64,000 nt of DNA from Psammoneis japonica (GCA_008632985.1 QPGO01000001.1:1-64000); one strand, 5' to 3'; positions 12,166 to 58,657 are shown, numbered from the stretch's first letter. Notes: generated by a model not told the origin, from the letters alone. Program-made: numbers and translations.

Positions 12166-12684
12166 TCGAATTGTCGATGATTCGTTCGATTCGAAGCCGG
12201 GTTCTGAGCTCACCGAACATTCGTCGCCATGACACGCTCGCCGTCGCAAAACAACACCATGATGCCTCTTGACCTCTCTTGTTGATGCTACACTGTAATT
12301 GTGTTGATGTCATGGCTCTGTGGTGTGCAGCAACAGCAACATTGTCGCAACAACAACATGAATGCCACGCTTCTTGGGTGATGCTCACAGGTGCTCGCAC
12401 GCCATGGCTGTTGGCAGTGGCTCTGGTGTGGTGTCCACGTTTTGGGTCTCTGCAAAAAGCACATTTGTCAGCTGCTCTGATTGGACCCACAAACACACTT
12501 TGAAGAACAAGCACAGATGCATTTGCAGCTCAAGGGTCATGGCTCAACCATTTTTTGCAGTGTCAACCTCAACTGACATGACACGAAATGGGCGTCATTT
12601 CAGACATCTTTGACAACTCAACTGACGTGAAAACCACTGACTTGCAAGAGGCAGCCAAGCTTGTGTCTCCACCCATTTGTGGTC
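12166..12684 (+). pseudogene. Deleted, hypermutated copy of the ferric reductase gene or a close paralog
   Basis: Three joined pieces match ~335-513 (upstream region and 5' end), ~1693-1852 and ~1888-2028. Confidence 0.92.
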
Positions 12685-12689
12685 CTTGT

Positions 12690-13443
12690 TGCATTTTGAC
12701 AAAGCCAACCCACAGCTGGCGTGTTCCTCCATGCCGGCGCCAATTGTCAATGCACCGGGATGAAGCACAATGTCTGCTGGAGGGCAACCCACTTCATGAG
12801 TGTCATGCAAGCACTTGCACATCCCAACCTTGTCCTCCTTGGTCACTGCTTGTCCTTGTTTGAAAATTGCCACAACTGCTGCTGCAGCTCTGTGTCTCTC
12901 TGACCATGTTCAACCACCTGCTGCTCTCCACAATGTGCCTCTTGGTGGTGCTCTTCCTGTTGAGCCCAAAACCCTTGCCCCAGAGCATTTGTCATGTGAC
13001 AGCAAGTTGTTTGCTGACAGATTGAGTCTCTGTGGTCTTTGTCTCCAGCACGCGACAAAACCATTTCTTGTGAAAGTGCCATTTGGATGATGCCATGATG
13101 TTCAGATGAGACATGAGGTCATTCACAGACACTTCAAAATTGCTTGATGAAGCTGCCACAAAGTGTGGCAAAAGCAACAAAAGTGCTGTTTCACGTTCTT
13201 TCCAACTGCAGAGTCAGGTGACTTGGAAGACATGTTGTCAGAGATGTGAGAGACTCTGCTTTTTAGATTGGCCAGTGTTGGCATGATGAAAGTTGCAGTG
13301 ACATTCCAAAACTGCAAAGGAGCAACAACAGGATTTTCGAAAAATCAAAATGTTTTCAGTCGTGATTGCACGGCAAAGCATGGGAAAATGGCGGTCACTT
13401 CATCAATCTCATTGTTGATGAATGCAAGGCAAATGAAAAAGTC
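12690..13443 (-). mobile_element. Possible MuDR/MULE remnant
   Basis: Minus-strand CKC...VG.P..H pattern near 12760-12820 resembles a degenerate SWIM finger; TA-depleted. Confidence 0.35.
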
Positions 13444-13447
13444 ACCC

Positions 13448-13836
13448 GACGTGTTCCAGCCCCAGGTGGGACTCCGTGTGACATTGGGCCCGCAGAATTC
13501 TACGTGCAAGCTCTGAAGCACGGGAATTTAATCAATGGACACATTTGTCTTCAACATCAAATGAACGGCCAAGTTTGTGGTGCAATCATGCCTCTCACCC
13601 TCGACGTTTTTGCAAATGCGCCTGCCCTGCACGATTCTTAAGACATTGTAGAACAGCGCTGCAACAAAAAATGTCAAAAGTTTTTGGACGGATCGCTCAA
13701 CAAGTGCACCGTAAAATGACACAAAACATCAAAAAAATCACATAGAAATCCATGTGCGCGACATACGACGAGATTCAAAAAACCATCGATGTCACAGTTC
13801 AGTGGTGCGAGGTCCCACCCAGACCTGGAACACGTC
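13448..13836 (-). mobile_element. ~389-bp MITE (GAC...GTC family), copy 1
   Basis: TIRs gacgtgttccag..aggtggga / tcccacc..ctggaacacgtc; 4-bp TSD accc; inverted relative to copies 2 and 3. Confidence 0.92.
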
Positions 13837-14100
13837 ACCCCCCATTTTAAGACCACCACAACACCCTCTTTCAACTGAGGTGCCTCTCGTTTTGATCCAA
13901 GAAAATTCGTCTCCATGTGATTTGTGCAGCATCCCCACCCATGGCTGTGCAGCACGGTCTGCGCACACTGACTGCCAATGCTGTGCAAGTGCCTGTGCTG
14001 ATGATCTGAGCTCTGGGGCTGCTGCACTGCACAGTCTTCACACGCTGACTGCCAGTGCACTTCTGTTCGTTCAAGCACCTGTTCAAGCACCTGTGCGTGT

Positions 14101-15355
14101 GGTTGGGCTCACAGTGCATGTTGCTGGATCTTTCAATCGAGAGCTCGTGCTCATGCGTGCAGGTTTTGCGCTGTGACACTCGTGCAAAAACTGCGCGGTT
14201 TTTAAAAAATGCCTGGATTCAGCCAATCAAAAGCTCCAAAATCATCCTCTCGCGCTCGCATCAGCAACAAATCTTTCCGAGGTGTGCCGCAAAGTGCAGC
14301 AAAACACCGACACGATGATGCGCTGACAACAAACAACAACGAAAGCAACGATGCAACGACCTTCAATTCATCATGACAACCATGGCACCAGGCAGAAAGA
14401 AATGCTCCAAGGACAAGATGCAAAGAAAGAAGCGACCAAGGTTGTCTGAAGAACAAAAGGCTGAGAGGAAGAGGAAGATTGCCGCGACGAAAGCCAGAAA
14501 AGGCAGAGAAGCAATGCAGCTGGCTCTGAATGGTGGACTTGCAAGAGCTGAAGCTCCTTGTGACAAAGAAGAGGAAGAGGTTGAGACACAGGTTGCTCAA
14601 GGTGAGCAAGAGCAGCAAGACAAGGTGGGGAGCCCTTTGCTGCCTGTGGACTTTCCAGCTGTCATGGCAGAGCTTGACTTTGATGATGATGGAGGTGTTT
14701 TTTCTGAAGAAGAAAGCGAGGACACTGGCAAACCTGGAGGAGTCATGGCACAATGTCTTGCAGCCATTCAAGCTCAACTCAGGAGAGAGACAACTGGAGG
14801 TGGTGTTGGGGCGCTTGACTGACCGTGGCTGTTGGACTGGAGAGTCCCACCTTGGGATGCAAGAATTGTTTGTAGGAAGCTCGGCATCCCATTTGGGGAA
14901 CCATCCCACTGCCGAGAATTTGTGGTGTGGCTCCCACAATTCAGGTGGGGTCCAGAGGCCACTCCATTTTGCCCCACATGCCTCAAAAACCGCGAGTGGG
15001 TCTTCACGGCTGCCAAACCAATCATGGCACCAGGCGAGTTATTTCTCTCAACACGTGCCATTGTGTCATGACGGCCCAACAAATTTGCCATGATTGCAAA
15101 GCACGATGCCAGAATGGTGAAGGCATCCCACAACACATGCTCATGGGACATAACCCAACTTCTGTTGGATTGCTGCCTCATGGACACGGCGACGAGTTTC
15201 CCGTGTTCCTGACTCACAAGGCTGCAGTCGACAAGGAAACAGTGCTGGGCCTCATGCGTCCAGTTCATGACAAAGGCATGCGGCCCGAAGCACTTTCCAG
15301 CCTGCTTGTTGAATTGCATTCTAAAAAACTCTTCCGTGAGCTCATCAAAAGAGAA
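14101..15355 (+). mobile_element. DUF6729-type DNA transposon, copy A, 5' part
   Basis: 14101-14860 is nearly identical to 28921-29700. Motifs C..C...FPVFLTHKAAVDK...LVELH. Interrupted at ~15356 and resumes at ~23069. Confidence 0.75.
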
Positions 15356-16194
15356 AACATGTGCCGACGTGACAGGCAGTCCAACCCCACAACACAAAGA
15401 GACGTCTGGTGGGGCAACAATCTGACATCGCGCGCGAACTCGCGTGCGACATTCTTGCCGGACATGTCTGAATTTTTTAAATTTAACATGAATTTTTTTA
15501 CACGCGGTGTCAGAAATCTTGCTTCTCATCTAATTTTTTTGTCATGTGTCACAAGAAAATTTAAATGCAGTGACCATGCAGAGAATGTTCCCGACATTTT
15601 CAAGTGCAACACTCATCCACTTTTCACCGTGCGACAATTTACCTTTGTGACAGCCCCCAGTTCACATTGCTTTCAAACCTTGCTTTAAATCTAACAAGCA
15701 CACGGACAAGATTCCCGTCATTTTACAGCGCAACACTTGGGTGCTTTTCACATTCTACATTGCTGCAGCTTCCGAGCTGAGTGGATTTCCCGGTTGACAT
15801 CAATGCCGCCGTTGTTTCCTGCTGCATGCTGGCAAATGCCACTGCCGTTCCGCGCGCATCCTCGTTGCACCCTCAGTCGCTTCTGTGTGTTGTTGTTCAC
15901 TCCTCTTCATCGAGATCCTGTTTGTGTCGAAGCGCTGTTGTCAGTTGCTGCTGTTCCTGGAGTCTCTTCCTCTTCCTTTTTGCTCCCTTGCTCATCGTTC
16001 CTTCCTTTGGCCTCCTCCTCACTGTCGCTCCAATCATTTTTTGGAGCAGCCCATCCACTCATGCTGTCCTTCTTTTTCTTCTTTCTTTTCTTGCCACGAG
16101 CGCTCTCTGATTTCTTTGTCTGCAGGCACTGTGCATTGACTCTGCCGCAATCCGTTCTCTCCTTCGCCACAGCATCATAGAGTTTGTTGCACTT

Positions 16195-16583
16195 GACACG
16201 TTCCAGGTCTAGGTGGGACCTCGCACTGCTGAACTGTGACATCGACAGTTTTTTGAATCACGTCGTATGTCGCGCACGTGCATTTCTACGTGATTTTGGC
16301 GAAATTTTGCATGATTTTACAGTGCAATTGTCAGGCTGTCCATTGAACAACTTTTAACATTTTTTTCTTCTACTTCATTCTCGAGTGTCTTGAGAATGGC
16401 GCAGGGCAGGCGTGTTGTCCAAAACTTCGAGTGCGAACAGGGATGGATGCACTGCAAACTTGGCCATTTTTTTCATGTCAAAGACAAACATGTCCATCAA
16501 CCAGAGTGCGAACTGCAGAGCTCGCACGCAGAATTCTGCGGGGCAAATGTCACAAAAAGTCCCACCTGGGACTGGAACCTGTC
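16195..16583 (+). mobile_element. ~389-bp MITE (GAC...GTC family), copy 2
   Basis: TIRs gacacgttccag / ctggaacctgtc; TSD actt on both sides. Confidence 0.92.
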
Positions 16584-18002
16584 ACTTGTTGATCCCATCC
16601 TGGTTCCATCCTTGATTTCATTTTGCCCCTTTCCCCAAGAAAGTGCACTTGGTGGCCACGGGTTGGGTCGGTGGCTGCGTCGCGCCGTTTTGTTCAAATT
16701 GCTCTTCGATCTCTGCCACCGACACGGCCGTTTCGCAGCAGTTGTCACACATCAGCCTGGCAAAAGCTCCATGCTTGTTGTCAGCCAATCGCTGACACCT
16801 TGGCTGTCCGATGTTTTAAAGTGCTCCATTCCTGCCGCCAGGGAGCAGCAATTTTCCAAGAACCAGAAGTGCATTTGAGGCAACACCCTGCCCTTTTTGA
16901 TGTCTTTGACGCTTGGCATTCCATTGCATCTGGCCATTTCTGAGCAAGAATCAACTTGTGAGAACACTGGCCCATCTCATCCACGCACAGCCCTGGCAGC
17001 ACTTGCGAACCAACTTCTTTCTAAAAACCTCCTGCCTGTTGTTTCTTCTTCTGTTCAGTCTTTTCTGCACCTTCTCCTTGTTCTCTTCCCGCCAAACTGC
17101 AGAGTCACTCGCATCCACGTTGAGGTGTTTGCAAACCTTTTTCTGCATTTTGCTCCCGAACACCAACTCAACCTCGTCGTGTGTCACGAATTTTGTCTTG
17201 GGGTGCACAGCCGTTGCAATGCAGTTGGTTGTCTGGCCATCCATGAACTTTCTCCTTGCCGCCTCCGAGCTGATGACCAACATTCCCGCAATCTCCACAT
17301 TGTGTGATCCTGTCTCTGCCGTGTCATGGGGGCTGACTGCATCAAAGGACACAAGACATGCACAAGCTTGCCAACCCGTTTGTGCAATGATGCCGCAACG
17401 CACACACCTGATGAATTGTTTCGCACCATCATGTTTGCTCACCCACTCTCCAATGTGTTTTGTGTCAACAAAATTCCTCCCTCTGTGCCAAACCCAGTCC
17501 TGAGTGTGCGCCCGCCAGCTTGCCCATTGGCCCTTTTTAAAAACTCCCTTTTGTTGCATGCCAAATTTTTCAAAGCACTCACTGTCAAACATCAACTGAT
17601 GAATTTTGCACTCCTTTTGAATGGCATGTTTTGTCATTGTCAGCCTCACATCATCCGTTCACTGCACATTTCATGATCTGCACGAAGAACAATGGCACTC
17701 CCCACTGTTGCATGCCACAATTTTCAAATCGCCAGCTGATTTTTTTTTTCGTCCAGATTTTCATAGAAGCAAGGGCTGCAGTCCGAACACTTCTTTTTGC
17801 TTTTTTATCTGGCATGCGACACCTTGCTGTGCCATCTTGGTCACCATGATCTTAGCTGCCCTGATCTTCTTGCCCGCCCACAAAGAACAGAGCACCGTTT
17901 TGACACAGTTCTCAACTCACCAGTCCGTTAAAAATTTCCATGATGTGGCAGGTGCTGTGTAGATTTTATGCTGTCTGGGCCATTGGGCTCATCTCTTTGC
18001 CC

Positions 18003-19007
18003 TCACTCGTCACCCAGCCTTGCTCTCACCCTTCTGTTTTCCTCATTGTTGACTCCTTCTTCTTCTCTTGCCATCTCGTGTGATTCCTGCAAGCGCTCCA
18101 CAACTTCGTGCAATCCACCGTTGTGACCACATCTGGCTGCATGCACTCCTGTGCAGAATGCCCGCAATCCCAAGAGTGCTTTCTTGCACACTGCTGTGTC
18201 TCCGCTCACCAGCGGGGGGCAACATCCCTCTGCAAAAGGCCAGGAGGCTCTGTCGCCATTGTCGTGTTTGTCCAGATGAATCGCGTTAACACTGGTTTCT
18301 CCTCCTGGTCTCACCTCACCATCTCTTCTAGGTGGCAGAGCACACACAATGTTTGAGTGGCGGCATTCTTTGTCTCCTTCAAGGCAAGCCAACACAATCG
18401 CGCAAAGCAGCTGCTGCGAAACGGACACCGGCACCTCCAACTCCAAGCCCACCAAATCTGTCATCAACGTCACTTTGTCCACGCACGTGTTGCAATGGAT
18501 CTTTTCCTTTTTCATCCACCCTTTCACAAATGGTTGCAAGCTGCACCTGCGGTGTCCATCACCATCCATGCACCCCACCGCGACATGACAATTGAAAGCT
18601 CTGCAGTCAATGCAAGCTCTGTTTTTATCCAGTCTTTCATGCAAACTCATCGTCCGAAACTCTCCCTCAATGTGCACCTCTCGCATTTCACGCAATGGCC
18701 CATTTGTCCGGTTTTTCCACATTAAAGTGCATCTGGGATCGCCAAAGTTGCACCTCCACATTCTCAGTGCATTGTCTTGCTTCGCTGCTTCTCTCAAAGC
18801 ATTGAGCACATGTGGAAACAACTGTTTGTGAACAAACAGCCATCTCCACATCATCTTGTAGCTCGTGCAAGAAAACACACACTCCAGGACGCCTTTGGTC
18901 AACGCAAGGCATCCCAGGCTGCCCAGTGTGTCGTGCTGTTGGCAATTGGACACAACATGTTCGATCAAAGGATGTGTGGCAGCTGTGGTGCCACTTCGAT
19001 TCTGCAT
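18003..19007 (-). pseudogene. Degenerate ORF of unknown function, co-oriented downstream of the Plavaka-like transposase
   Basis: 334-codon protein-like ORF with charged C-terminus; TA-depleted, so its length may be inflated by loss of stop codons. Confidence 0.3.
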
Positions 19008-19699
19008 GGTCGCTGCATCAAAATTTTATGTGGGGCCACACCCGGGGATTCCAATCGTGCCATTTGTTTGTCATGTGTCGCTGAAAGTGAGTGCAAAATT
19101 TCAATGTTTGTCTTTCACCTTGTTGATTTGATTTCACACAATTGGGATGTAAATCGACACACTGTCGTCAAAAAAGGGTTGATTTTTTGTCAAATTTTCC
19201 ACACTGTCACCAAAACAAGAGAGTGATCATGCACAACTCAATTTTCATTGCTGAGGACAATTCTTTTGTGTTTTTGTGGTCCCAGGTGATGCTCCTGGGA
19301 CTGCAGCCCATGTGTTCACAATGTCACACAACCTCTTCACATCTGTGTTGCTGTTTTCTTCTGCCAGGTTGCAACCCACTCTGTGACAAACATCCATTTT
19401 CTCCTGCCATGTTGTTGTCATGTTCCAACTGTCACCACATTCATCATCTGCCACCCATTCTGACAGGACTTGATCACCGAAACAACAAACATTCTTGGCA
19501 ATGTGCGCATTTCCAACCTGGTCAGCATGTCAGCAAGAGGACCTTGACACACAAGAAGACAGCTTCTGTTGGACTGTCTCCCACTGGCATCAATCATTTG
19601 TTCCGCACTCTCAATGCTGATGGATTTCTTGGCACAAAAAATCAACAACGTCTGGCTCTAGATGAGCGCTTTGTTCCCTTTTCATTTCCAAGGTGCCGG

Positions 19700-22600
19700 T
19701 GCACTCGCAGCATGTTTTTTCAACTCGGTCGACTGTGAACATGGCGTGACCCAGGTCGTGGTGTAATGCTGCTGCCACTGACAAATCCTGAGTTGCATGT
19801 GGACGGACAATCAAATTGTTGGCTCTCTCCAAAAGACTCTGCTCTCGCACAGTTGGCTCACAAGTTGACATGTGAACTCTTCTTTGCCTTGCAATGCTTG
19901 GCAGGTCTGACTTGGAAGCTTTGCCCATTTCTTTAGACCAGACTTGCCGGTGGTGGCATCCCATCCTGAAAACACACCCAACCGACAAAGAGCGGCGACC
20001 AAGTGCAGCAGGTCATGGAACTTGGATGTTTTCCATCCATGCGTGCCTTCACCACGATTGATCATGCTGTGCAGCTCAAACATCAGAAGCTCTGGGTGAC
20101 ATTCAATGTTGGCTCAGTTGGTGCGTGAGTGCAGGGAAGAACCACAGCTGCAGAAGGAGTGGAACAACAACAATTTGTTGAGCAAAAGCAACAAGTGTTC
20201 CGCATCATCACAGTCCACTGAACAACAAGCCAGCTCCAGGTCATTGCACAGGCTGTTTGGCCTTTGGCGGAATGCAAGAGGCAACTCCTTTTCAATTTCT
20301 GAACAAACGAATGGTGGGTTGTGAGAATTTGCCTTTGTGTGAAGGGACTGGTGTCGATCCACACAGCGTCTGAAAATCTCAGAAACAGAGGAATCGGTGT
20401 GGTTTGGGATGCAGAGTTGATGATCCAGGTTGACATTTCTTTTTGCATCCACACAATGTTGTGACAAACATGAGCTTGAGCTGTTGTCAGCTGCTGCGTG
20501 TGAGGACACTTGTGCATGAGCCCGTGTCCGCGATGTTGATCCTCCAGATGTTCGTTGTGGACTGGGTCATCGTGTGGCCACATTCTTTGTCAGTGCAAGG
20601 CTGGTTGACCGAGGATGCGGAGGCCTGCGGTGGTTGATCCCCAGGGGAAACTTCCTCCTTGTCACTTTCTTCCTCGTCATCTTGTGGATTTGGTTGCTGT
20701 TTGTCTGAATCACATGCGGACTCATCGTCGTCGTTGTCGGAAATGGGCTCACCTTCTTCGTGTGCATGACCATCATTGTCCTCTTCTTCGTGTCCACATT
20801 CTTCTTTGTGTTCATGTTCTGAAGGCTGGTCATCGAAATTAGAAGCGCGTTTTTTCTTTGTGTTGTCAAAATCTGGATGGCAACGAAGACGGAGCATGCT
20901 CCGTCCCTCCTCGGTCTGACCCATCAGTGCCAATGCAAACAGCTTTTCCATCTTTTGGTTGCAGGTCAAACCAGACAAGGTGCAAAATCCATTTTGCAAG
21001 ACAGCCGGTGGAAAGTTTGATCTCTGACCTGGTCTGCACCACTGAGATCCAAACACGCGGTTTGCCAAATCATTCAGTCGGGATTTGGAAGAATTGGGCA
21101 AATCATCGACAATGACGGAGAGCGTCTGAGGGACTGTGCCGCCTTGGAACATGTGCATTGGATCAGGGGACGCAAACCCAAACACACCCTGACGATTGTC
21201 TCCCATCCGAAGACAAAAGAATGAATTGTCAACCGTGTGTTGGCCACACACCTTGTGGGGTGTGGTGGAACAAATGTTCATGCACCGGACGACTGCACTG
21301 CGTGCCTTGGAATGGATTGAATCGGCTTTCGACTTGGACATCACTGTGTCCATTTGTGATTTGACACAAAGATGCCATGGACTGCCGGTGGAACCGGGTG
21401 GTGGTCCAAGGGCTGCAACAGTTAAACACTCCATCAGTTCTTGGGAAAAGTGCCTGCAGCAATGCAAAGGTTCATTGCTGTTGGTCCAGGAAGTGTGACA
21501 GGCACGACTGATGCGGCGGGAGTTTTCGCACCCAGAAACACGGCCGGTGACTTGTGCGACGTTGACAGCATCGCCCAACGACGTTGCACTGTGAACAACA
21601 ATGCGCTTGTGACAATGCTGATTGCCAAGTCAGACTCGGCAGACAGGAGGTGATTCTTGCCATTGAATTACAGACACTGGAAGGACAGATGAAATTCAGT
21701 GGCAATTTCTGATGTTCATCCCTAAAACGGGATTCTTTGTTTTGCAACCTGTGTGTTTCGGAACAAATCCGAGAGGTCGCCATGCTTCAAAACAACGGTG
21801 GGCACATGACTTGATGAGAGTTGCAGAGAAAACAAATGGCTCCATCGAATGAGGTGTGACCTGTCCTTTCCCAGTTTTGTCAGTGCAACGCAAAACAAAC
21901 ACATGAAAGGAACCGGGGACGGCGGGAAAAATGCTGCCACAAAAACAGTTCCTGCAAGTTTCACCATCCTTCTTTTTGGCGTCGTCACAAAGTTTCCAAT
22001 CGCCATTCTCGTCCAACATGGGTTCACTGGAGAGCACCTGAGACCAACGTGAATCAGGAGGAACATCAAGATTTGAAAGATCGGCAAAAAGGGGATCATC
22101 GAACAGATTCTGCAGTTGGAGGGAAAAGTCATGCACAGGGATGCCGGGAGAGAGCTCCTGAGGCAGGTTGTTCTTGAATTGGTTGACGATGGACACAGAC
22201 TTGAGAGGAATGCACTGCAGCACTGGGGCCACAATGCTGGGCAACACCAACTTGAGCTTGGACATGAAAGTTCGAGAAGAGGGGATTTGTCCAGTGATGG
22301 ACAACCCACCACTGGAGAGTTCCTCCTGCACAGTTCTCAGCAGTTCATCTGTCGTGCTGATTGGGACACCCTTGTGGCAACACAAATTCAACATGCAGAC
22401 CATGGATGTCGTTTTGCAGTTGTGCGCTTTGGGCACCACGAGGTTCTCGTCCGCGGAGAGGTGTCCAACTTGATCGAGTGCGGAAAAAGGGCCAGATTCT
22501 GCAACATTGGTGGCAGAGCCCTCGGCATCAGAAACAAATTCTTTGGGGTCTGGAAACTGGCAGTCTGAAACATCATCAACGTGGGGAAGAACGGAGTTGT

Positions 22601-22961
22601 TGTGGGAACCACGCAGCTCTGGCACAGATGAAGGTGCGCGATTGGAGCGTGGCGGCCGGGGATTGTGTCGGGTGCAACCATGTGGAGCTGGAACTGCATT
22701 GGCATCGGGACCTGCGGCGACAAATTCAAATGGAGAGCCGGGGGTGGAAGAGGTGGCAACATCCACTTGTTCATCCAACTCTCCAGTTTGGGGGTGTTTG
22801 CCATGAGCGGGGTCGGATTGATGGGAAGAAACATCGCAAAGGCTTTGAGAAAAGGACAGTTTGCAGGTGAGACAAGTTCTCAGGTGGTGTTGAAGACCAG
22901 TTGGGAGAAAACGTTTGCCACACACGGGACAATCATTTCTGATGGCAAAGGGGGCCGCCAT
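19700..22961 (-). mobile_element. Plavaka-like transposase remnant
   Basis: N-terminal CPVC...H..C finger; CTDKTG (YxDKT), EPFVFS, AWRPLGFVP, GDA...GR, PDPMHMFQGG and KFHDLLH motifs across ORFs 21696-22961, 20487-21578 and 19811-20083. Confidence 0.75.
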
Positions 22962-23068
22962 TGTTCATGTTGTAAAAACAAATGAGATGAAAATGAGTGG
23001 GACGAACCACGTGATAAAAAAAACACGTGGCAGGTGACAAGATTGGGCTCTGCATGAATCAACTCAGG

Positions 23069-47082: not shown

Positions 47083-47149
47083 GGTGCTGCTTGGGTTTTT
47101 GAATGTGCAGAGGAGGCAAGAACTGTGTGGCTGGTGCTTTTGACTGTGA

Positions 47150-48800
47150 CAAATGGCGTCCATGGCTGCTGCACTCTAAATTTTTGACTTTGCCTGATTT
47201 TTGGTTGCTTTGCTTTTGGATGTGTGCAGCACTGATGTCACCTGGTTTGCACAGTGGATGGGTGTTTGACCGGCACCATTCACTTGTTCTTGGTGGGTGG
47301 TGTGGTGGTCATCATTGAGGATGCAGATGATTTGCAGGCTCAGTTGGCAGTTTTTGTCAAGGTTGTTGAGGTGCTGTTGAATGTTGAGTGCCTTGTTGCT
47401 TGTGTTGCTCCACAGTTTGTTCAGCATTTCCAGCTGGGTGTCCATTGGAAACTCAAAGACTGAGCCAAAGGCAGTGCAGCTGTGGGCAATGTTGGTGCCA
47501 TCAATGGGTGCTGCGTTCCATGCTTTGGGAAGCCTTGGTGGTTCCCTTTTGAGAGTGGGATCCATTCCATGTGGAGTGCATCACACATTGCTTCAAAGAT
47601 GCCCATCTGAGTCCTGTGCAAAAGAGCACCTGTTCCAGCAGAAGTTTTGAAATGGAGGCAGCTGACATTTTTGTGATCTCTGTTGTGATCATGCTGCCAG
47701 TCATGTCACACATGGCGGTGAGATGCCTTTGGCATTTTTGAACAAGAGTGTTTTGTTGGCTGCCCAGACATCTGGGAGGGTGAACTTCCATGGTTTGTTG
47801 GCTGCTGAGCCAAAAAGCATGTTAGAAGTTTGAGCTCTGATGGAGTTTGATGGGATGCATTCTGGGCAGGCCTTGATGGAGGTGGAGACAAAGGATGACA
47901 TTTTTGGCCAGAAGAAAAAATTCATTCTCAGCAGGGTGAGTGTTGCCTTTTGTCCCATGTGTCCAGTGCTTGGAGTTGCATGGCAAGCTTTGAACACCAT
48001 GCATCTTGTTTTTCTGGTGCAATGATGAGGAGGAGCTTGCAAGATCCTGAGCAGATGGGTTTTTTGATGACAAGATGGTTGTTTTTGCATTTGATGAGAT
48101 GGTCTCTGTTGAGACCTCTGTGTGCTGGGTTGACCTGGAGCAGCTCATTTTTTGTCTGCTTGTGATCTTTGTTGAGCACAAGGGTTTTCCAGATGGTGTG
48201 TGTGTTGTGATCATTGGAGTGCAGGCTGGAGGGAGAAGAGTGAGGAATGAGAGAGTGAGCACAATTGCAGAGTTGACAAATGCAACCTTGAAGGAAGAGA
48301 GCCAAGCAGGAGGCTGCAGCAGGACCAAATTTGGAGCGGCAGGGAACAGGGGCAAGGACAAGGGCCTTGAAGAGCAGCAAAAGCTTCCAGAAAGGTGCAG
48401 AATCATGTTGCCATGGAGGAGTGAGATGATCAGGGTCAGCGAAGGGGGTTGGGAAGTGGCAAGGCTCCACCGAAAAATGTGGCGAAGAGTGGAGCAGAGA
48501 TCCTTGCAAGCAGAAGAAGAAAGCTTGCAGTGAGAGGAGGCTCAAAAAGGCAGAGGCGTGGGTGTGAAGGAGTGGAGCCACTGAAGGGAAGAGTGCCATT
48601 TGCTGATGTCGTGAAGGGAGGAAGCAATGATGTCAGGGTTGAGAGCAGAGCGAGGAGCGAAGTGCTTGTTTTGCAAGTGGTTGTGATGATGCATAGAAGA
48701 GAGGCAGTCATGTTGGCTGTGATTGCAATGTCTGCAGACATGCAAAAAGTGGCATTGAAGAATTCAGCATGTGCTTGAGACAAAGAGAGACGTGGATGCT
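47150..48800 (-). mobile_element. Ty3/Gypsy pol remnant (integrase)
   Basis: HATPSTGHMG..ATL..LR..FFWPKM...V...IKACPEC matches the Gypsy integrase H2C2 zinc-binding domain. Confidence 0.85.
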
Positions 48801-49410
48801 CCTGGCGAAGGTGGCTGCGGACAGCAGCGAAAGGGAGGATGCATCTGCAGATGAAGGAGACCAGGAGCAAAAGGGACAAGTTGCGGTCTTGGTGGGTTCC
48901 ACGATTCGATGGTGTCACAGAGAGAGTCAAAGTCAGGGGATGCAGCCCGGAGTAGCGGCTTCGTACAAAGGCGTCCAGTCAGAGAGATGAGCTGGGCAAT
49001 GGGAAGCAACTAAGGCGTCAAGGGCATCCAAGAGTTCCATCTCGCGCTGGGGCTCCTCTTTGCTGTTACAGGTTGCTTCGCCGTGCGTGTGCAGGCTGAC
49101 ACATCCGGTCCAGACATGATGGATGAATCTGTTGAAGACTGAAGCTGGGACTGGGACCCTGCGAGGAGGAGTGAGCCATGCTCTTCCCTGGCCACGATGT
49201 GCATTAGACAATGTATTACTACACATGCATGAAACTATAAGTTTGTCAGAAGGCCCATAACGCGATAACCATTAATGGTCCAGTGCTTTACCCATACAAC
49301 TACTGAGCGCATCAAATCGCTTCGCTTTTACCCGAATACACGAGCGATGTTATCTTCAGCCACATAAATAGCTTTTTGAGCTATTTCTTGCTCTCTTGCT
49401 TACTATCACT

Positions 49411-50385
49411 TTAATTGTCCTCAATCTTCGGCCATATGCTATCGAAATCAACAACCCAGTCAGCAGTTGGTAGGCCAACTTCGACCAAAAGTTTGCATTT
49501 CGTCCATATCTCGTCCACCTCGACAACATTGTCGTCTAGACAAAGCGCCGCAACGGAAAAATGTAGCCCAGTATGTGATGATAACATCGAACGAGCGTTC
49601 TGTCGCGTTTGAATATCGTTCAAGCTGATCCCCGAAAGAAGCATAATTGAAGCCACGAGACATGTTAAATCATACCGAAGTGAGGCCTCTGTCCCGCAGT
49701 CCATTCCAAAAGCAGGCGAGGTGGCTGTCAACATGTCTCCGTATGCTGTACACGATCCAAAGTCTATGGTAACCACCGTCCGGTTTCCTGCCTGGAACAT
49801 CATATTCGAGGGTTTGATATCGCCATGACACATTTCTTTGTTGGAAAATGCCTTAATGGTAGCAAGGCCACATAGCGCCACATTCAGAATTGTGGCTTCG
49901 TTCACACTTGCGTGCGATACAGGAATGGGATAGAAAGGGCACACCATCGCAACTCGATTCTCGTCGATTCGTATGCTGTCAAAGACTGGCATTACAGACG
50001 GGCACTGCTGTTTCTTGTGAATCAGCTGGGACGTCTTCACCTCGGTCTCTATTGTTGCTGTGTCTCCAATTTTGGCGCAGTATAGATCGGAACCTCGAAT
50101 AACATACTGTAGCACGGTCTTTTGTTGGCCGAATGCCATGGGCACCAATCCGTCGAAAATATAGTCAGAGACGAGTTTGGACCTTGTCGCGGTTTTTACC
50201 ATTCGCTGGATTTTGATGTAGAGAGAACTGATGTCGCGATCCTTCATTTTGTCATTCATGATCAATACAGCCTGTGAAGAGAACGTCGTCAGTAAGCACG
50301 ATGCTTCCGAGTCGGTCAATTCTTTCTTCACAACACGCTCCATTTCCTCTGTGGGATCCTTAGCTGCTGTGGCTGACATATTCAA
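49411..50385 (-). CDS. Small intronless atypical protein kinase
   Basis: Intact 324-aa ORF with CAK, HGDIKPSN and IDFGS; no clear Gly-rich loop or APE; normal TA and Tyr content. Confidence 0.8.
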   Translation of the reverse strand: MNMSATAAKDPTEEMERVVKKELTDSEASCLLTTFSSQAVLIMNDKMKDRDISSLYIKIQRMVKTATRSKLVSDYIFDGLVPMAFGQQKTVLQYVIRGSDLYCAKIGDTATIETEVKTSQLIHKKQQCPSVMPVFDSIRIDENRVAMVCPFYPIPVSHASVNEATILNVALCGLATIKAFSNKEMCHGDIKPSNMMFQAGNRTVVTIDFGSCTAYGDMLTATSPAFGMDCGTEASLRYDLTCLVASIMLLSGISLNDIQTRQNARSMLSSHTGLHFSVAALCLDDNVVEVDEIWTKCKLLVEVGLPTADWVVDFDSIWPKIEDN

Positions 50386-50566
50386 AGTTGTTTTATTTGC
50401 GTAGTTGTACTCGTTAGTTGTTTAGCTTGTTTCGTGCCTTGTCGGATCTGGTGGTTGTCGTCGATGTTCATGTTATCTTGCTTGTTGGCCATCGTCCATC
50501 GCACGGTATGTAGACGGTAGAAGTACTGGTAGTATCGTGTAGATTAGAGGACGCCTGTTGTGTTTC

Positions 50567-50777
50567 GCAAGGAAATTCGCAGTGGCGGTCTGTCTGTACG
50601 ATGGTTTCTACGCAAATTTTGTACTTTCGTCCGTCCCTACCACCTCCCGCCCGCGCCGAACCGCCCGACGACGACTCCTCCAATTATTGTCTCGACGGAG
50701 GTGGCAGGGACGGACGAAAGTACAAAACATGCGTAGAAACTATCGTACAGACAGACCGCCGCTGCGAATTTCCTTGC
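50567..50777. repeat. Inverted repeat with 81-bp arms and 49-bp spacer
   Basis: 50567-50647 is the reverse complement of 50697-50777 with a few mismatches. Confidence 0.93.
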
Positions 50778-50851
50778 ATGTAATGTGGCGACACCCAAAA
50801 TCTCGCAGTGTCGTGAAGGTTTGCACAACCACTGTTTTTTTTGAAGTCCAC

Positions 50852-53800
50852 TGCGACAACTCTCTCGTCTGAGAGCTGGGAGAGGTCGACGGAAGGTTGA
50901 GCAGATGATCGCATCGATGGCAGTGGGCTGACGACGATGGCAGAATCGGCAAAGCTGCCAATGTCTTGTTGCACTGGATGTTGTGATTGTGAGCAGAAAA
51001 AGGGGACAAGTTCTCCAAAAGAAGGGCGGGAAACCGCACGCGCAAGTGAAGAGCGCGCGAGTCGCGCATGAGTTCGCACTGTGTTGGAGCTCCCTCTCGA
51101 ACGAAGAAGCTGCCAGCCGCAAAGCAACTTGCAAATGGACTCAAATTTGACAGTGACGAGTCCTTTTGTTAGAATGTCAGCGTGTTGCAGGTCTGCTGCA
51201 ATCTTGGATGCAGCAACTCGATTTGGTTTGAGCTGCGAACGAAACCAGCGACACTTGATTGCGCAGTGCTTGGACCTTGGCGCAATTCGGCCAGGTTCCA
51301 TGTTAGCTGGAGTCAAGGCTCCAGCATTGTCCTCCCACATGGTGGTCCTGATGGTCTTGGTGGTCCCCAGACCAACTCCAGTGCCTTGGGAAATGGCTTG
51401 TGCGGTGCGAAGAAAGGGAAGGACAGTTTTCATGCATGTGGAGAGAGCGCTGCACTCTGCTTCCATGGTTGAGAGTGCGATCTCGGGTGCAAGCTTGCCA
51501 GACCAGATGACAGGACAGTTTGAAATGCAAGTGACAAATCCTGTTCAGCTCTTGACGCAAGCCGGGTCTTGCTTGTCTTCATGAGGCCACAATCCAGCAA
51601 AATCTGAGTCCACAAAAACGTCGATGTTGAAGTCCCCAGATGGCTTGAGGATTGAACCTTCCTCCAGTGTGCCCTCCAGGTGTTGGCCGATCTTTTCGAG
51701 GGCTTGTTCATGCAAGCAGCATGGACTGTGAACAAATCTTGCGGCAGAGCCAACTGCACAGGTGATGTCGGGCCTTGAATGGCCTTGGAGATGCTGGAGC
51801 ATGCCAACAACACTGGCACAATTAAAGGCTCCATTTGGTGGGTCTCCATCGGTGTCCTTGACCAACGGAGTCAACAGTGTGGGTGTTTGGGCCTTTGGCA
51901 GATGGCTTGCATTGAGGGCTTCGATGACACGCTTGGCCAGGCCACTCTGAGTGAGCTTGACAGTGCTGTTGTTGCTGTCACGATGGATGTGGACGCCTGA
52001 AAAACCTGCGACGGAATCCTCGACTTCGATGGCCAGACCACCATCAATTTTGAGTTTTTCGATCACTTCGTTGATGTGCTCTTGCTTTGGTGAAAAGAAC
52101 AGTGTGTCGTCAACACACACAAGGCAGATGACCTCATCAGACACAAAGAGACACGGATCAACATCATCTTGAGATTGAAATCCGGCATCTTCTAGTTTTG
52201 ATTTGAGGTGCAGGAAAAAGTTGTGCGGTCCTTGTTTGAGACCATGCACGGTCTTCTTGAGTCAAAGTGCTTTGCCGGGCTCAGTGCATCCGCGAGGCAT
52301 TTGTGTGAACATGCCAGAGCGTTCCCACTCTTCGGGTGTCATGGCACCCCATTTTGGATCTTTGTCAATCGGAGCATGCACGAAAGCCGCAACACAATCA
52401 ACTTGTTTCATGGAGAGCTCAAGAATTTGCAAAAGCATGAGCATCAACCGCACTGTTGTCCAATTGACAACCGGAGCAAAGGTGTCAAAACAATCAACAC
52501 CTTCCAATTGCTTGTTGCTGCGGACACAGAATCGGGCTTTGTGTTTTTGGATTGACCCATCAGGGCATCATTTGCATTTGAAGGCCCAAGTGGATGGCAG
52601 GACATTCATCCAATCTTGGTGGTCGACTTCCTCCCAAGCATCTTTGCCGTTGACAAGGGAGTCAATTTTGACATCACAAGCTTTGAGACAGGCTGCGCGA
52701 TCGGGTCCACTCACAGCTTCTTCCCAAGTGGGGTTGTCGGCAGAATTGGCGCCAGCTGCCAGAGCCAGAGGATGCATTTCTTCAAGTGTGCCGTGGACTT
52801 GATCAGTGTTTTTGTGGAAGAGGTTGATCATTGCATGCAAGTCTTTTGATCGGAGTGCATTTGCAATGCTGTCCCATTTTGGGGCCATCAGAAACTGCTT
52901 GTTGAGCGTCTCTGATTTGACCATTCATTTGGGATTCTTGCAGGCTGTCGGCAACTTGTTTGGAGGAATGCGAATGTCAGCCATCATGGCTTCAACAAGG
53001 CGGTCCGGTTTCTTGATGGTGCGGCCGCTGCGAGTCCGAGCAGGCAGAGCAGCAGGTTGAGGAGTGGCATTCGGAGCTGTTGGTGTGAGCTCAGCCACGT
53101 CTGAACCAAGATCCAGGTCTTCAGGCAAGTCATGATGATTGACAAGAGACAAATCGTCGTCGCTGTTGTCACCAAACTCATCAATTTCGACTCCCTCTGG
53201 AGCCTCTGAAGAAACAGATGCTAGATCATCCAATGATTCAGGATCAGCAGGAAGCTCTCCCTCTGGAGATGTTGCGGAAGAGGTTGGAGAAAGAGGAGGG
53301 TTGCCAGATGAGGCGCAGTCTGACGATGGTTCTCACGGTGGTGGCGCTCTTCGGGCATCAGCCAATCGTCATGCAGTGCGGGGAGGTGATGGCGAGGGTC
53401 CTCGGAAGGCTTGAGCATGGTTGACTGCTGAGTCAGTTGCAAGCAGGGATTCCCAAAGGTCTGCGGAGAAAGGGACGTCCTGAAAGCACCCCCCCCAGAG
53501 TCGCTGTTGGGTGCAGTTGAAAAGTGGTTGTCGTAGACCACATGGTGCTGAGGGCTGACACAGCCAGTCACGAGGTTGAGGATCAGGCCAATGTTTGTAG
53601 AATGAGCCGGGGAGATGCCAAGGTGTTGGCCGCGGCAGCTGCGTGGGTCCCACTTCGGAACTTTCTTGCCATCCTGTAGTTTGGGATCTAAAACATGCGC
53701 GGGACAGCCCCGCACTTGCAAGTGCTGTAAATGCGTGCAGAAATCAAAGTGTTGCTTGGAGCAGATCTCAACAGGAGCAGTTCGAGTGTCGATTTTGGGA

Positions 53801-56800
53801 AGGTGATTCCACAAATGGGCAGAGTGAGTCATGGCAAACGGCCAAAGTTCCAGATTGGCGGCATCAGGCCACATGAGGACGGCATGGAGCAACACAGATC
53901 TTGCCCATGAGGCAACAGTTTGGATGGAGCATTTGGCGATGCCATTTTGATGATGGGCACCAACACCAGAGAAGTCTGTCATCTGGTGGTTTTCTTCAAG
54001 ATCTTGCATGAAGGCCTCAGAGCCGAAAGGGATGTCATCAGCAAGGTGTTGCTTGACCTGGACCCCAAATTGGTCACCAAGCTGCTCAAAGGCATGCTTG
54101 GCACGAACAGTTTCACCTGCAGTGAGACCAACTTGATGGGTCAGGAACACGCAGCTAGAAGCGTGATCGACAAAAATCGTGCCGCCACTGCACTTGTCTT
54201 TCTTGGGTTCGTGCCCCTTGGTTGACGGAAGACGTCCAGGGACGCAGCTGATGCACTGGTCGACGGAGACACGTTGACCTGGAGACAAATTGCCCTCTCA
54301 CAACACCATGGGCGGAGGATTGGATGCACTGCAGCGGGCTGGAGTGCACCGCTTTTGTTTCGCCAGTTGACAGGCGGCACACAATGGCGGTGCACAACCG
54401 ACCACCGCATTGGATTTGGGTTGAAGGACTTGGGATTTTGCAGGATCCCTTGGCACAGCACTGAGACGTTGCATGTGCTGGAAGCTGGCGTGACTGAGTT
54501 TTTGATGAAGCAGAGAAGCTCCTTTTGACCTGGAGTGAGGTTCTGATTTGTCTGTGAAGTGACTGACAAGAAGGCATCTAGTCGGTCGGCTGTGCTGATC
54601 GGAGCCAAATTGCATTTTGAAACTCCAGCGGATGTTGGTGTGGACATCATCATAAAAGGTAAGTTGCTGTCCTTGTTGTGCGGGAACTCAAGGGTGTCCC
54701 CACCTGGGAGCGTTGGGGTGGCTTTGTCACCATGCACTGAACATTCACCTTGATTTCCATTTTCTTGAAAACAGGATTGCAGGCTAAAAAGGTGGATGGA
54801 GGCGTCAGGAACGTAACAAGCCTTGGTGCGAACAGTGCGCACAACGTTCCAACAGTCGATTGTGCCCCATTTGACGACGTAACCTTGACCCACAACACGA
54901 GTGGTTGAGGACAATCCGTTGATCGTGGTGAGTTCTGCAGGTTCAAGAGGGCCTGTGAAGTCACTCAAGTGCGGAGTGAGAGAGGAAGAGGCGCCGGCGT
55001 CAAGTGCCACGGGCGCATCAACAGGCAAGGCTGACAACAGAGCTTGACATTGCGAGCTGTCAAGATGTTGTAAATCGGCTAACGACTTGATTGGTTTCTG
55101 GCAAGGATGCATCAGTTGGAGACGGTCCAGAAGTCGAGGTTTGGTGGGAGAACATGGCTGCGCCACCAAAACCAGTCGAGCAGGTTGCTGCTGTTGTTTG
55201 GGACAGATTGGTTGCTGTGCAGGAGAGTGCAGGTGCTTCTCCGCAAGCTCGGAGCACATCCAATGAGGCAAGTGCTTTTGTCATGTGAAATTGTGCAAGA
55301 GGGTCGACACCTCGCACGAACTCATCCAAAGAGATGCCGAGCTGCATGTTGCACACAATCCAGGATTGGTGTGGCAGTCGGTGTCTGATGCGGGCAAACT
55401 CTTCGAGCTCGTGTGCTTTGGGGTCTTCCGCTGGTGCAAAATTGGAGGGTGCTGAATCAGCAGGTTTGAATTCAGCAGACTTGGTCTGCAGGCAATCGTC
55501 TGGCGGATCTGACAACATGACAAAATCAGTTGGCGTTGCACCGCATGGCAAGTCGCACATCTCAGAGGGCAGATGCAGCAGGCGATGCTTGATTTGTGCA
55601 CAAGCTTTGTTGGCTTCTTGAATGGGATCAATGCAGGCAAACCTGGGCTTCTTGGGTTTCAGAGGCTTGACTCGACGCCTTGGTTTTAAGAGTTTCCAGG
55701 ACTTGGATCGGCGACACTGCCTGAAATTGGTTTCTTCAACAGCAGCATCGTCCGGCATGGGTGCTTGACGGTTGCAGTGCCAAGTCGTTGGATGAAGGAA
55801 GGAACGAGGAGGGTCTCTTTGTGGGATTCGAGCTGGACAACGGTCCAAACAACGAACTTTTGCGTGATGAAACAATTTGTGGCGCATCCGATGAAGATGA
55901 GGATGATGATGTGGGACATGTTCCAATGACGAGGTGACAATGAACCAAGGCATGTCATCACATGAGAGCGAAGGATTCTTGGAAAAGAGCAGCAAGCAGA
56001 AAAACAATCCACCTGCTGACACAAAAAGAAACTGCAAAACAGCAGAAACAGCTGCGTCTCCTCCCTCTCCAAGAATCTGGAGAGCAAACCATAAGAGGAG
56101 GGACTGCACTGCAGTCACACAAGCCTGGATGTCCCTTCCAGGACAAGGAGTTTTGCTGAACAGCGAAAAGGGGTGGGCCAAACACTCAAAGAAAGAGGCG
56201 CGCCTGGAACTTCAGGTGAAGGAAGCGAAGAGACCAGTGATGGTCTTGGCAACCTCATGCTTGGCGTTCGCCACAGCCACTTCACGGTCAGGGTTCAGAG
56301 TGGAAGCAGGGGCTGGAGTGGGTGCAGGAGCAGGCACTGGAGGTGCGGGAGGCGCGGTGGCAGCACCAGCGACCTGAGCAACAGGGCGCCAGTGCTTGGT
56401 CTTGTAATGATGGCAGTGATCTTTACCATCAATGTGGCGGTGACTGTTGTTGTTCTTTTCGGCATCAGTCGGTGGTTGCCATTTCTCAGGAATGGTCTTG
56501 GTGGGCTCACCATCCTTCTCAGAGGAAGCAGTGGTCTTGTTCTGAGCCCGTTTTGCGTCGAAAAACAGTTTCTTGTTGGCTCGCACGCGAGCATCGTTGA
56601 CGGGTTTCTTGCAGTCAGATGGAGGATGAGGGCCACCACAATTGAAGCAGGTGACCACTCCGGCAACAAAGGAGGTGGCATTCTTCTTAGCAGTCACGCC
56701 GGACCACTGGTCGAAAGACACAAGGGCCAGACAGTGAGCCTCAGCAAATTTGAGGAGATCAGCCACAGATGTGGTGCTGATGGTTGGACCACTGGACTTG

Positions 56801-58278
56801 AGCTTGGAGATTTGTGAGTCCTTGGCAAGGTGGTCAAATGGAGAGTTAAATTCTGGCACGCTGGAGGTCTGAAACACCTTGGCAAGATTTTCCATGAAAT
56901 CAGAAGGAATGACTGATTTGCCTTTCTGATCCTGGAGGTTCTGAAGTCGAGCACATCCACCATGGATGAGGGAGACGACTTTGCTGACGTCTTCACCATC
57001 AAAGTCAGTGATCTTGAGAGAGGTTGTGTCAGCAACCAAGTGACGAGCAGCCTCTTCAGAGTTGCTCTGAAGAAATTTCATCATGAGCGAGAAAAACAGA
57101 GGTCCGCCTTGTTCTTCTTGCAGATGCTTGAGACATGTCTCATTGACTTTCTTCTGGAGGGCACATGAAGCGTTTCTCTCAAAACAGTTGCAGGTGAGAA
57201 GAAGATTTTGGCTGGCCAAGGTCCCATCGGGGTCCTCGAGCATGGCAGAGTGCCACTTGTTGCTCTTCGCGACTTCAGCTTCGGTGATCGTTGAATGCTC
57301 GGTGCAGAGATCACGGGTCTTGAAGGTGTCAGGATTGACAATTTGGAAAACGTCGTCCATGTCGCACTTGGCGTGGTTCGACTGCATGGTCGAGATGGAC
57401 ATGGCCAGATCACAAGTGTCTTTGAGCTCATCTGGATCGTTGATGTTGAAGTTAAGGAGGTCAAAGCGAGTCTGCTGTTTCGCAGTTGCACGCTGGAACA
57501 AGTCACCAAGCTTGTCCGGATCTAATTTGTTCCTCTGCTGTTCAGTGCAGAGAGCAGCAAGAGCATCCTTGGACGTTTTGGGAGTTGTGCGGACTTTAAC
57601 TTTCCTTCCATTTGTCTCCACCTTGGTGGTCATGATGCTGGCAGGCGGAGTTGGCGCACGCGGAGGAGTTGGCAGACTTGGAGGCTGTTGAGGTGCGCTC
57701 GCATCAGGGCTTGACATGCGAGTCACTGAAGGAAACGGAGGTTCTTCGGATGGCGGTCAGTTGTTTGACCATTGTCAGTCTGAATGTGAACTCTTTGTTC
57801 AGCAATGCGAATGACAGCAGCCTGACGGTCTCGAAGGGTGACTGTGCGACAAAAGTTTCGAACTTCGTTCGTCATCACAACACGGTCTCCGACACGAAAA
57901 TCAGCGATGGTCAGTTCTCTGTTGACAACAGGTCGAGCGGATCCGGCTCTGACTCTGTCACAGTTCTGTCATTCGTGTTTGGCAGCAATGCGACGAACCA
58001 AGTCGGCTTCTTGCAGTTGAAGTGATTGCAGTTGTGCAATGAGATCGTCAAGTGTCTCAGAACTTCGATTGGACATCGACGTTCCGCACGTGGAATTGCA
58101 CGTGAAAATGTGTGGAGCTCAATTCTCGTCCACCGGAGAGAAAAGAGATGAGGCACAGGAGTCGTCAAGCGTGATGCTTGGGCTCCCAACCTGCGACAAC
58201 TCTCATCTGAGAGTCAGGAGAGGTCGATGGAAGGTCGAGTGGATGATCGCATCGACAGCAGCAGGCTGACGACGATGG
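50852..58278 (-). mobile_element. Near full-length decayed Ty1/Copia LTR retrotransposon (CoDi-like)
   Basis: gag 56212-57726 with CFNCGGPH knuckle; protease LDAGAS; integrase VSVDQ, FVDHAS, HHQNGIA; RT HGLKQ and CVDD; RNase H. PPT gagagggag at ~51090-51098. LTR homology 50852-50940 vs 58192-58278 (5' LTR truncated). PBS-like ggttgggagccc next to the 5' LTR. Confidence 0.95.
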
Positions 58279-58657
58279 TGGTAATAAAAATAATTATCAT
58301 CAGTCTGTCCATCCGTCCGTATACGAATATAAACTTCTTGGGAAATCAATTGAAATATGCTATCTGATTGACGGTGTTTTGATTCACATGGTGAAGGCCA
58401 ATGCCGTCAACCAGATAGCCCTAGCATTTCAATTCAGTTCCCGAAAAGTTATTAGCTCTAATCACTCTCTCGTATGACATTGTGTACATTTCTACACGAT
58501 TTTGTGTTTTTTCTCTATGTAAAATATTAATTATGACCCACGCGACATTTTCGAATGATTCCTATTGCGACGGACGGAGTGCAACAGCTGTTAATTTGTG
58601 TTAGTACACCTCATAGCTCTTCCGCCGTTCACATCTATATTGTAAAGTACCTTGATT

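Follow-up and report, generated by a model that had tools for sequence, protein, structure and literature searches.

Transposon graveyards of the diatom Psammoneis japonica were probably hypermutated in place at TpA on either strand

In fungi, repeat-induced point mutation (RIP) converts C:G pairs to T:A, mostly at CpA, and mutates both copies of a duplicated sequence; it takes place before meiosis and requires a cytosine methyltransferase of the RID/Dim-2 type. A change in the opposite direction has been reported for the chlorarachniophyte Bigelowiella natans (Rhizaria): the main text of a preprint by Mettrop et al. (2026; bioRxiv 10.64898/2026.01.13.699255) describes how integrated DNA of giant viruses and virophages is hypermutated from TpA to TpG/CpA at a rate of approximately 6e-7 per site per generation. 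In the mutation-accumulation lines described there, only TpA>TpG/CpA changes arose, in integrated viral DNA and in some of the lines only, at approximately 1e-7 to 1e-6. The same text reports 124 TpA-poor clusters and an enrichment of TpA-poor genes for transposon domains, and it proposes an ADAT2-like deaminase as the enzyme candidate, citing the activity of ADAT2 on DNA. As far as this main text goes, it deals with neither diatoms nor sequence context beyond the dinucleotide. In this study we analyzed a 64,000-nucleotide stretch of DNA from Psammoneis japonica (QPGO01000001.1:1-64000, hereafter the window), in which decayed transposons lie in TA-poor blocks beside host genes of normal TA content. 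We consider it probable that these transposon graveyards were hit by in-place TpA>TpG/CpA DNA hypermutation, acting on either strand and of the same kind as that of B. natans.

Dinucleotide observed/expected ratios (o/e) were computed in 1-kb windows, and block limits were located in 200-bp bins; the ranges given here are those of 1-kb windows lying wholly within the blocks or wholly within genes and unique spacers. TA o/e was 0.01-0.20 in the blocks and 0.29-0.77 outside, CA+TG o/e was 1.43-2.02 and 1.02-1.53, and CpG o/e was 0.09-0.82 and 0.85-1.33, respectively. Combined, the four larger blocks (Table 1) hold 207 TA in 44,114 bp, where approximately 1,830 would be expected from the density of the flanks (812 TA in 19,575 bp), and the TA density is thus 8.8-fold lower in the blocks. 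An original prediction, made from the sequence alone, had placed TA-poor, CA/TG-rich old repeats beside genes with normal TA; the 200-bp bins agreed with the limits it had proposed, which are sharp at element ends, and the short block at the window edge was as poor in TA as predicted (1 TA). Taken together, we confirmed that the TA depletion of the four blocks, with its CA/TG enrichment, is real. Unique non-coding DNA has a normal TA o/e (0.64 at 10037-12170 and 0.67 at 26600-28560), and the loss is therefore not an effect of coding versus non-coding sequence. Two repeats are TA-normal despite their repetition, one of them in tandem at 27082-27775 (70% identity) and the other a 284-bp repeat within a gene (95% identity).

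Within the kinase gene, TA dips at 8-10 kb, which might have been a leak of the process into a repeated gene. That reading was rejected, since the Tyr content there is normal (2.0-3.7%, with Cys and His low), and the dip is compositional.

The direction of the change was read from conserved residues. For Copia, 76 of 120 homologs (at least 1,200 amino acids (aa)) served as the outgroup, and 647 columns were retained, each with 20 or more aligned homologs and an agreement of 70% or more. At the 22 conserved Tyr columns, the Copia sequences of the window now encode Cys (TGY) 11 times, His (CAY) eight times, Tyr twice and Phe once; Cys or His occupies 16 of 19 such columns in the Copia retrotransposon, and all three in the Copia fragment read TGC, CAT or CAC. 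Other residues were largely kept (Phe, 27/29; Gly, 51/56; Pro, 50/53; all non-Tyr, non-Arg columns, 481/585). T>C before A is also seen outside Tyr codons, as Leu>Pro through CCA at five columns and Val>Ala through GCA at three. The element carrying DUF6729 and an exonuclease domain was compared with its single homolog, P0121, a 1,539-aa relative with DUF6729 and a 3'-5' exonuclease domain: at the 64 Tyr sites of P0121 the element has 20 His, 15 Cys, 29 other residues and no Tyr, and at one Tyr the tandem copies differ from each other, one having Cys and the other His. In the Plavaka-like transposase, compared with 58 homologs over columns of eight or more residues and an agreement of 60% or more, TGC stands at both conserved Tyr columns, and FYTDKTG of the best relative aligns with RCTDKTG. 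The four motifs in which the original prediction had recognized a replaced invariant Tyr were all found, encoded by TGY or CAY: CVDD at 52106-52117(-), HGLKQ at 52232-52246(-), CTDKT at 21873-21887(-) and CAAVDA at 30300-30317(+). The aligned codons show the change to run from TA to TG/CA, that is, by A:T>G:C transitions.

That the elements were natively TA-poor through composition or codon usage, or lost TA through GC-biased gene conversion, has nothing to recommend it beyond the composition itself and can practically be dismissed. Conserved, functionally required Tyr codons have been lost from these elements, whereas intact Copia relatives keep them, many of the 76 homologs having Tyr in 22 of 22 columns. 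A host gene described below has TA where its duplicate has TG or CA, and gene conversion would require A>G to be raised at ApA, CpA and GpA, which is not the case.

In the Copia conserved columns, A>G at codon position 2 affected 11/22 TpA, 1/40 ApA, 1/41 CpA and 0/60 GpA sites (TpA versus the other contexts, 2/141; Fisher, 1.3e-9), and T>C at codon position 1 affected 8/22 sites before A, 1/34 before G and 0/29 before T (5e-5). This confinement to TpA argues against GC-biased conversion and against DNA polymerase eta (Pol eta), whose mutagenesis motif is WA>WG. At the former Tyr sites of three element types, Cys and His outcomes are nearly equal (29 and 32), and the TG/CA skew does not exceed 0.07 in any block. 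The codon contexts and outcomes thus show a restriction to TpA and an equal use of both strands, as had been claimed in the original prediction of a TpA-specific A:T->G:C mutator acting on both strands; the Pol eta-type repair that it listed among candidate mechanisms is disfavored, ApA not being elevated.

The strand symmetry also argues against sense-strand RNA editing. ADAR-like editing of element transcripts, fixed by reverse transcription, would account for a T (or U) on the 5' side, since ADAR prefers A>G with a 5' U/T neighbor according to the discussion in the preprint on B. natans, and ADAR and APOBEC3 in animals likewise edit invading or repeated nucleic acid. However, those enzymes act on RNA and single-stranded complementary DNA (cDNA), respectively, with a one-strand bias, whereas sense and antisense outcomes are balanced here and elements without an RNA intermediate are hit. 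The changes extend equally to transposase-type elements, to non-coding parts and to a host-gene fragment, and the two long terminal repeats (LTRs) of one element differ from each other. We therefore regard RNA editing as exceedingly unlikely.

The host-gene fragment provides a comparison with a known parent. Parts 333-513 and 1693-2028 of the ferric-reductase gene are duplicated at the edge of block 2, with 79% and 74% identity, respectively (self-BLAST), and the duplicate differs from the parent by changes such as GATACT>GATGCT, GGTATACAG>GGTGTGCAG and AATATT>AACATT. The functional gene was taken to represent the ancestral state, and the first 107 bases of the first piece were left out as indel-rich. 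On this basis, strand-folded A>G was found at 13/28 TpA positions (14 TA dinucleotides), all 13 changes at TpA being A>G; elsewhere, the folded counts were 6/61 at ApA, 5/60 at CpA and 6/48 at GpA. The parent has TA where the duplicate reads TG or CA and is itself unmutated, though under selection. The duplicate lacks the parent coding bases 514-1692 and is therefore not a processed retrocopy; a transposon may have captured this part of the gene. These results show that retrotransposons, elements of DNA-transposon type and a copied piece of a host gene have all been hit, within limits that coincide with element ends. They also qualify the proposal that the target is repeated or heterochromatic DNA: the mutated tracts are indeed confined to mobile or repeated DNA, but repetition alone appears to be insufficient, as both the tandem repeat at 27082-27775 and the parent gene are unmutated.

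In this respect the locus appears to differ from RIP, which hits both copies of a duplication. As in fungal RIP, transitions in a dinucleotide context inactivate mobile or repeated DNA on both strands within fairly sharp limits; however, RIP creates TpA and lowers GC through C:G>T:A changes, whereas the A:T>G:C changes seen here destroy TpA. Deamination of 5-methylcytosine (5mC) is a second process to be set apart, and diatom transposons are methylated. Like the TpA changes, it produces TpG/CpA in the same blocks, converting Arg CGN codons to TGY, CAY or TGA. Of 40 conserved Copia Arg columns, 21 are kept, seven are Cys, four are His and two are TGA, and these codons show CpG>TpG/CpA decay to run in the blocks as a separate process. 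It cannot explain the TA loss, whose source was ancestral TAY codons. In the same Copia sequences, the loss of TA is more complete than that of CpG (Tyr is kept in 2/22 columns and Arg in 21/40), so that CpG decay is separable from TA loss and, judged by these codons, slower.

The two processes were found apart in an environmental sequence. Metagenome contigs were scanned with two patterns from a 16-sequence Copia alignment, one of which, QVDYTAAF, requires a Tyr codon, so that mutated copies are under-sampled among the 79 loci obtained. Seventy-eight loci had a TA o/e of 0.39-0.90. The exception, L061 (1-3085), has no TA in 3,085 bp and a CpG o/e of 0.92; at its conserved columns, Tyr is kept in 0/10 (six Cys, three His and one Phe) and Arg in 17/18, and Leu has become Pro through CCA at eight columns. 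L061 has no nucleotide match to the Copia of the window and only 40-57% identity by tblastx, and it therefore belongs to a different Copia family. The claim that neither RIP nor 5mC decay removes TA was borne out by the direction of change, which is opposite to RIP, and by L061, which lost its TA with CpG intact. As a further observation on this contig, its base counts (TG, 201 and CA, 289; T, 566 and A, 773) suggest a strand bias, unlike the window.

The TA dinucleotides that survive in the blocks are mainly YTAR (TTAA, 45 versus 74 expected; CTAA/TTAG, 25.5 versus 60), and RTAY is nearly gone (ATAT, 0 versus 167 expected; GTAC, 4 versus 149). A model of independent hits on each strand, governed by the base 3' of A, fits all 16 contexts with hazards of 2.41 for T, 1.78 for C, 0.68 for G and 0.19 for A; these are approximate, the flanks having been used in place of the elements' ancestral composition. 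The product ratio (RCAR+YTGY)/(RTGR+YCAY) was 1.42 in the blocks and 1.16 in the flanks (p = 6e-4), in modest agreement with the model, and His was the outcome in 23/37 cases after a purine and 9/24 otherwise (p = 0.07), so that the predicted link is a trend only. Survivors and products thus fit a putative per-strand preference for 5'-TAY-3'.

This context bears on the chemistry. In tRNA, the invariant U33 precedes A34, which is deaminated by TadA/ADAT2-ADAT3, and the natural site of bacterial TadA is UAC. The requirement for a 5' T would mirror U33, and we tentatively suggest, by analogy, that the chemistry may be adenine-to-hypoxanthine deamination by a TadA/ADAT2-like enzyme, which would be a DNA-deaminating protein of the CDA fold (HxE, PCxxC). 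As with TadA/ADAT2-ADAT3 and TadA-derived base editors, the target A is preceded by T/U, which is a resemblance and not an enzyme identification; on the 3' side, the UAC site of TadA would accord with the fitted preference for pyrimidines, among which T does at least as well as C. We know of no natural chromatin-directed DNA activity established for the TadA/ADAT2 family. A non-deaminase route, by mispairing of a modified thymine (e.g., 5-hydroxymethyluracil) or adenine at TpA or by Pol eta-type error-prone repair, appears rather unlikely. TpA is palindromic, so that a symmetric modification could be maintained, and A>G on one strand is indistinguishable from T>C on the other; however, Pol eta predicts hits at ApA, which was changed at 1/40 sites against 11/22 for TpA, and the most strongly hit context, RTAY, follows from a TAY rule that holds per strand and is not palindromic, which fits an enzyme that reads one strand.

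Copies of the same element were hit separately. Among sites at which two copies differ in both bases, the share of CA-versus-TG differences was 22/33, 4/4, 12/18, 4/5 and 9/17 in TA-poor pairs and 2/31 in the TA-normal tandem pair. A single site of the three-copy repeat reads TA, CA and TG across the copies, and the two LTRs of the Copia retrotransposon differ through CA/TG doubles. At 80% likeness, contigs of a public sequencing run (X1) include numerous paralogues whose differences are mostly transitions (A>G, 295; G>A, 354; C>T, 262; T>C, 273), with TG/CA doubles at 51967-51968 and 54728-54729. Such doubles between copies imply a separate mutation of each copy rather than inheritance from a TA-poor master. 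The finding to be expected if active copies were equally TA-poor was thus not obtained: homologs keep Tyr, and copies differ as TG or CA at the same site.

Whether the mutations arose before or after integration is a distinct question. The same chemistry could have acted, in an APOBEC3-like manner, on the free element (cDNA or excised DNA) before or at integration, and the limits of the TA-poor tracts, which stop within a few bases of element ends, speak for this: at the right end of the Copia retrotransposon, TA reappears at 58282, within 4 bp of the end of the LTR match (58278), and block 2 sets in, between 12154 and ~12270, at about the point where the duplicated segment starts. We nevertheless consider this explanation unlikely. 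There are 2,281 RTGY/RCAY sites one ordinary transition away from RTAY, at which a background of 8/425 predicts approximately 43 RTAY, and only 7 were seen (P ~1e-11); we infer from this deficit, dependent on the background estimate, a continued removal in place. In addition, tandem copies within one element differ by TG/CA doubles, with Cys and His at one Tyr; a copied host-gene fragment was affected, though it was possibly carried inside an element; and in B. natans the process was observed on integrated DNA, according to the main text of the preprint.

The bases themselves are supported by public contigs. The X1 contigs contain 82% of the sampled words of 49300-59200 and are identical to the window at 49300-50596 and 55023-55713, with a word depth of 51-67 (exact 31-letter words); contigs of a second run (X2) cover the flanks and a few pieces only, and no contigs of a third (X3) were placed on the window. 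It is conceivable that modified TpA in transposon DNA was miscalled as TG/CA by a long-read basecaller, given that nanopore data in general show systematic miscalls at methylated motifs and that no record names the platform on which the assembly and X1 were sequenced. Such an artefact is very unlikely, because the depth of exact words and the identity at 55023-55713 are unlike noisy reads, L061 from a separate metagenome assembly is in the same state, the amino-acid consequences are consistent between copies, and CpG>TpG in the same tracts would be left unexplained. The assembled bases are thus matched by X1, which may be the assembly's own sample.

As in B. natans, insofar as the preprint's main text describes it, the change is almost exclusively A:T>G:C at TpA only, yields TpG or CpA depending on the strand, and hits foreign DNA while the adjacent host DNA is normal; the B. 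natans clusters are also rich in reverse-transcriptase and transposase domains. Unlike that system, in which mutation was followed in real time and depletion is partial (Rho 0.45 in a giant-virus region), the record in P. japonica is historical and near-saturated (o/e 0.01-0.20), and it comprises Copia, Gypsy-type, Plavaka-like and DUF6729-exonuclease elements in addition to a copied piece of a host gene. The original prediction knew of no description in diatoms. Our full-text literature search, which did not cover subscription journals, returned no diatom report of the signature, and the B. natans preprint was its only description; the process as such was therefore already reported in 2026. 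A paper on fungal TET/JBP transposons (PMC12730594) mentions TA, in the parts available, solely as a target-site duplication. The present results probably extend TpA hypermutation to a second lineage, a stramenopile, and what is new is that several transposon classes are hit to near-saturation, that there is a fitted preference for the 3' neighbor, and that an environmental locus of another Copia family, L061, lacks TA while its CpG is normal.

We propose that A:T pairs in TpA would be converted to G:C on either strand, resulting in TG or CA, and that this would occur in place on integrated copies and continue after the first hit. It would be directed by a mark of mobile DNA (small RNA or heterochromatin) rather than by repetition per se and would serve in genome defense. 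More speculatively, a chromatin-targeted pathway of 5'-TAY-3' adenine deamination by a TadA/ADAT2 relative might be common to diatoms and chlorarachniophytes, perhaps throughout the stramenopile-alveolate-Rhizaria (SAR) group, as a defense that mirrors RIP and is independent of cytosine methylation; we hold this broader idea to be doubtful at present. Several points weigh against in-place hypermutation by such an enzyme. The sharp Copia limit could mean that the element itself was targeted or that it was mutated before integration. The timing rests on an assumed background from one element, the evidence in P. japonica is historical, and X1, the sole run that supports the bases, may not be independent. 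The 3' hazards depend on the flanks as a proxy, and the link between a 5' purine and the His outcome is a trend. Finally, no deaminase domain was present among the 216 open reading frames (ORFs) of the window (66 + 150) scanned against Pfam.

Table 1. Features of the 64,000-nucleotide window of P. japonica
Feature	Coordinates	Strand	Basis or content
TA-poor repeat fragment, window edge	1-310		1 TA in 310 bp
Ferric-reductase host gene, unmutated parent, TA-normal	795-3050	+	Ferric_reduct, NAD_binding_6; TA o/e 0.55-0.57
Decayed Copia fragment, TA-poor	3200-4910	+	6 TA in 1,711 bp; tblastn, 75/76 Copia polyproteins at 3000-4500
MLKL_N, kinase, FG-GAP host gene, TA-normal control	5309-10036	+	Pfam
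Ferric-reductase duplicate, mutated at TA and CG	12173-12682	+	Self-BLAST
TA-poor block 2, nested decayed elements	12300-26580		74 TA in 14,281 bp
385-bp three-copy repeat, in block 2	13453-13837, 16195-16579, 24573-24956	-, +, +	Self-BLAST
DUF6729-exonuclease element copy 1, in block 2	14556-15370, 23235-24607	+	Pfam, homology to P0121
Plavaka-like transposase remnant, in block 2	~19500-22964	-	58 relatives
TA-poor block 3	28570-49200		99 TA in 20,631 bp
DUF6729-exonuclease element copy 2, in block 3	29385-32917	+	ExoIII-type motif reads CAAVDA
Ty3/Gypsy-type integrase zinc domain, in block 3	47704-48144	-	Pfam
Decayed Copia LTR retrotransposon, TA-poor end to end	50790-58280	-	28 TA in 7,491 bp; RVT_2, SH3_retrovirus
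Short LTRs of the Copia retrotransposon	50851-50940, 58191-58278		Self-BLAST
Host genes, cytochrome b5 and XPD-type helicase, TA-normal	58281-64000		Pfam; TA o/e 0.52-0.77

The nearest named relatives of the Copia sequences are proteins of Nitzschia inconspicua, Fragilaria crotonensis and Cylindrotheca closterium (47-59% identity), and among the sequences compared these alone point to a diatom host. The best relative of the host kinase has 43% identity and the helicase matched generic helicase clusters, neither of which indicated a taxon. Two Copia homologs from other sources were themselves unusual. In the polyprotein P0027, 11/22 of the conserved Tyr columns have Phe, and Tyr makes up 0.8% of the residues; a Tyr-to-Phe change would be TAY>TTY, a different TpA-linked change, possibly reflecting another mutational process in another organism. 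P0085 has Cys or His at 5/22 of these columns and keeps Tyr at 10, and may be a copy, from another source, that was hypermutated in part. The Plavaka label of the transposase remnant derives from a weak PF18759 Plavaka match in 1 of its 58 relatives. The ~385-bp three-copy repeat of the TA-poor block ends in inverted sequences resembling GTTCCAGG...CCTGGGAC and is rich in CpG (~21 CG in 471 bp); by these features, it looks like a miniature inverted-repeat transposable element. In block 3, CpG is lowest at 44-48 kb (o/e 0.09-0.16), which we take to be the oldest part.

The two large blocks (35 kb, 12300-49200) contain 163 stop-to-stop ORFs of at least 95 aa over the six frames. The loss of TAA and TAG leaves TGA as the sole remaining stop codon, which results in long ORFs in all frames, and most of them are probably spurious. 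When 150 of the 163 were scanned against Pfam (the 13 shortest were left out), DUF6729 and the integrase zinc domain gave the only credible matches, and the rest, below the cut-off, were taken as chance. Tandem duplications within decayed elements, 91-92% identical, lie at 31108-31864 and 46451-47093, the former repeating part of the DUF6729-exonuclease protein. Among the host genes, the kinase gene carries in its FG-GAP part, at 9189-9755, the 284-bp tandem duplication of 95% identity; its length is not a multiple of three, the ORF stops at 9510, and another frame is open at 9446-10036, so that it may be a recent disabling duplication, an intron or an assembly error. At 62643-63326(-), an XPD/RTEL-type helicase ORF has a PDZ domain directly before DEAD_2 (Pfam), which is an unusual combination.

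In practical terms, TA-poor tracts give rise to spurious ORFs and hide transposons from domain searches, and annotation pipelines should allow for both. Base editing, too, could take an interest in an enzyme of natural origin that turns A:T into G:C within double-stranded chromosomal DNA. If our interpretation is true, the genes common to both lineages would offer a comparative route to the enzyme, with 5'-TAY-3' as a testable rule, and L061 would show the process working without CpG methylation decay. Every transposon class in the window would have been silenced to near-saturation, and TpA hypermutation would not be a peculiarity of one chlorarachniophyte but a genome defense in a second major algal lineage.

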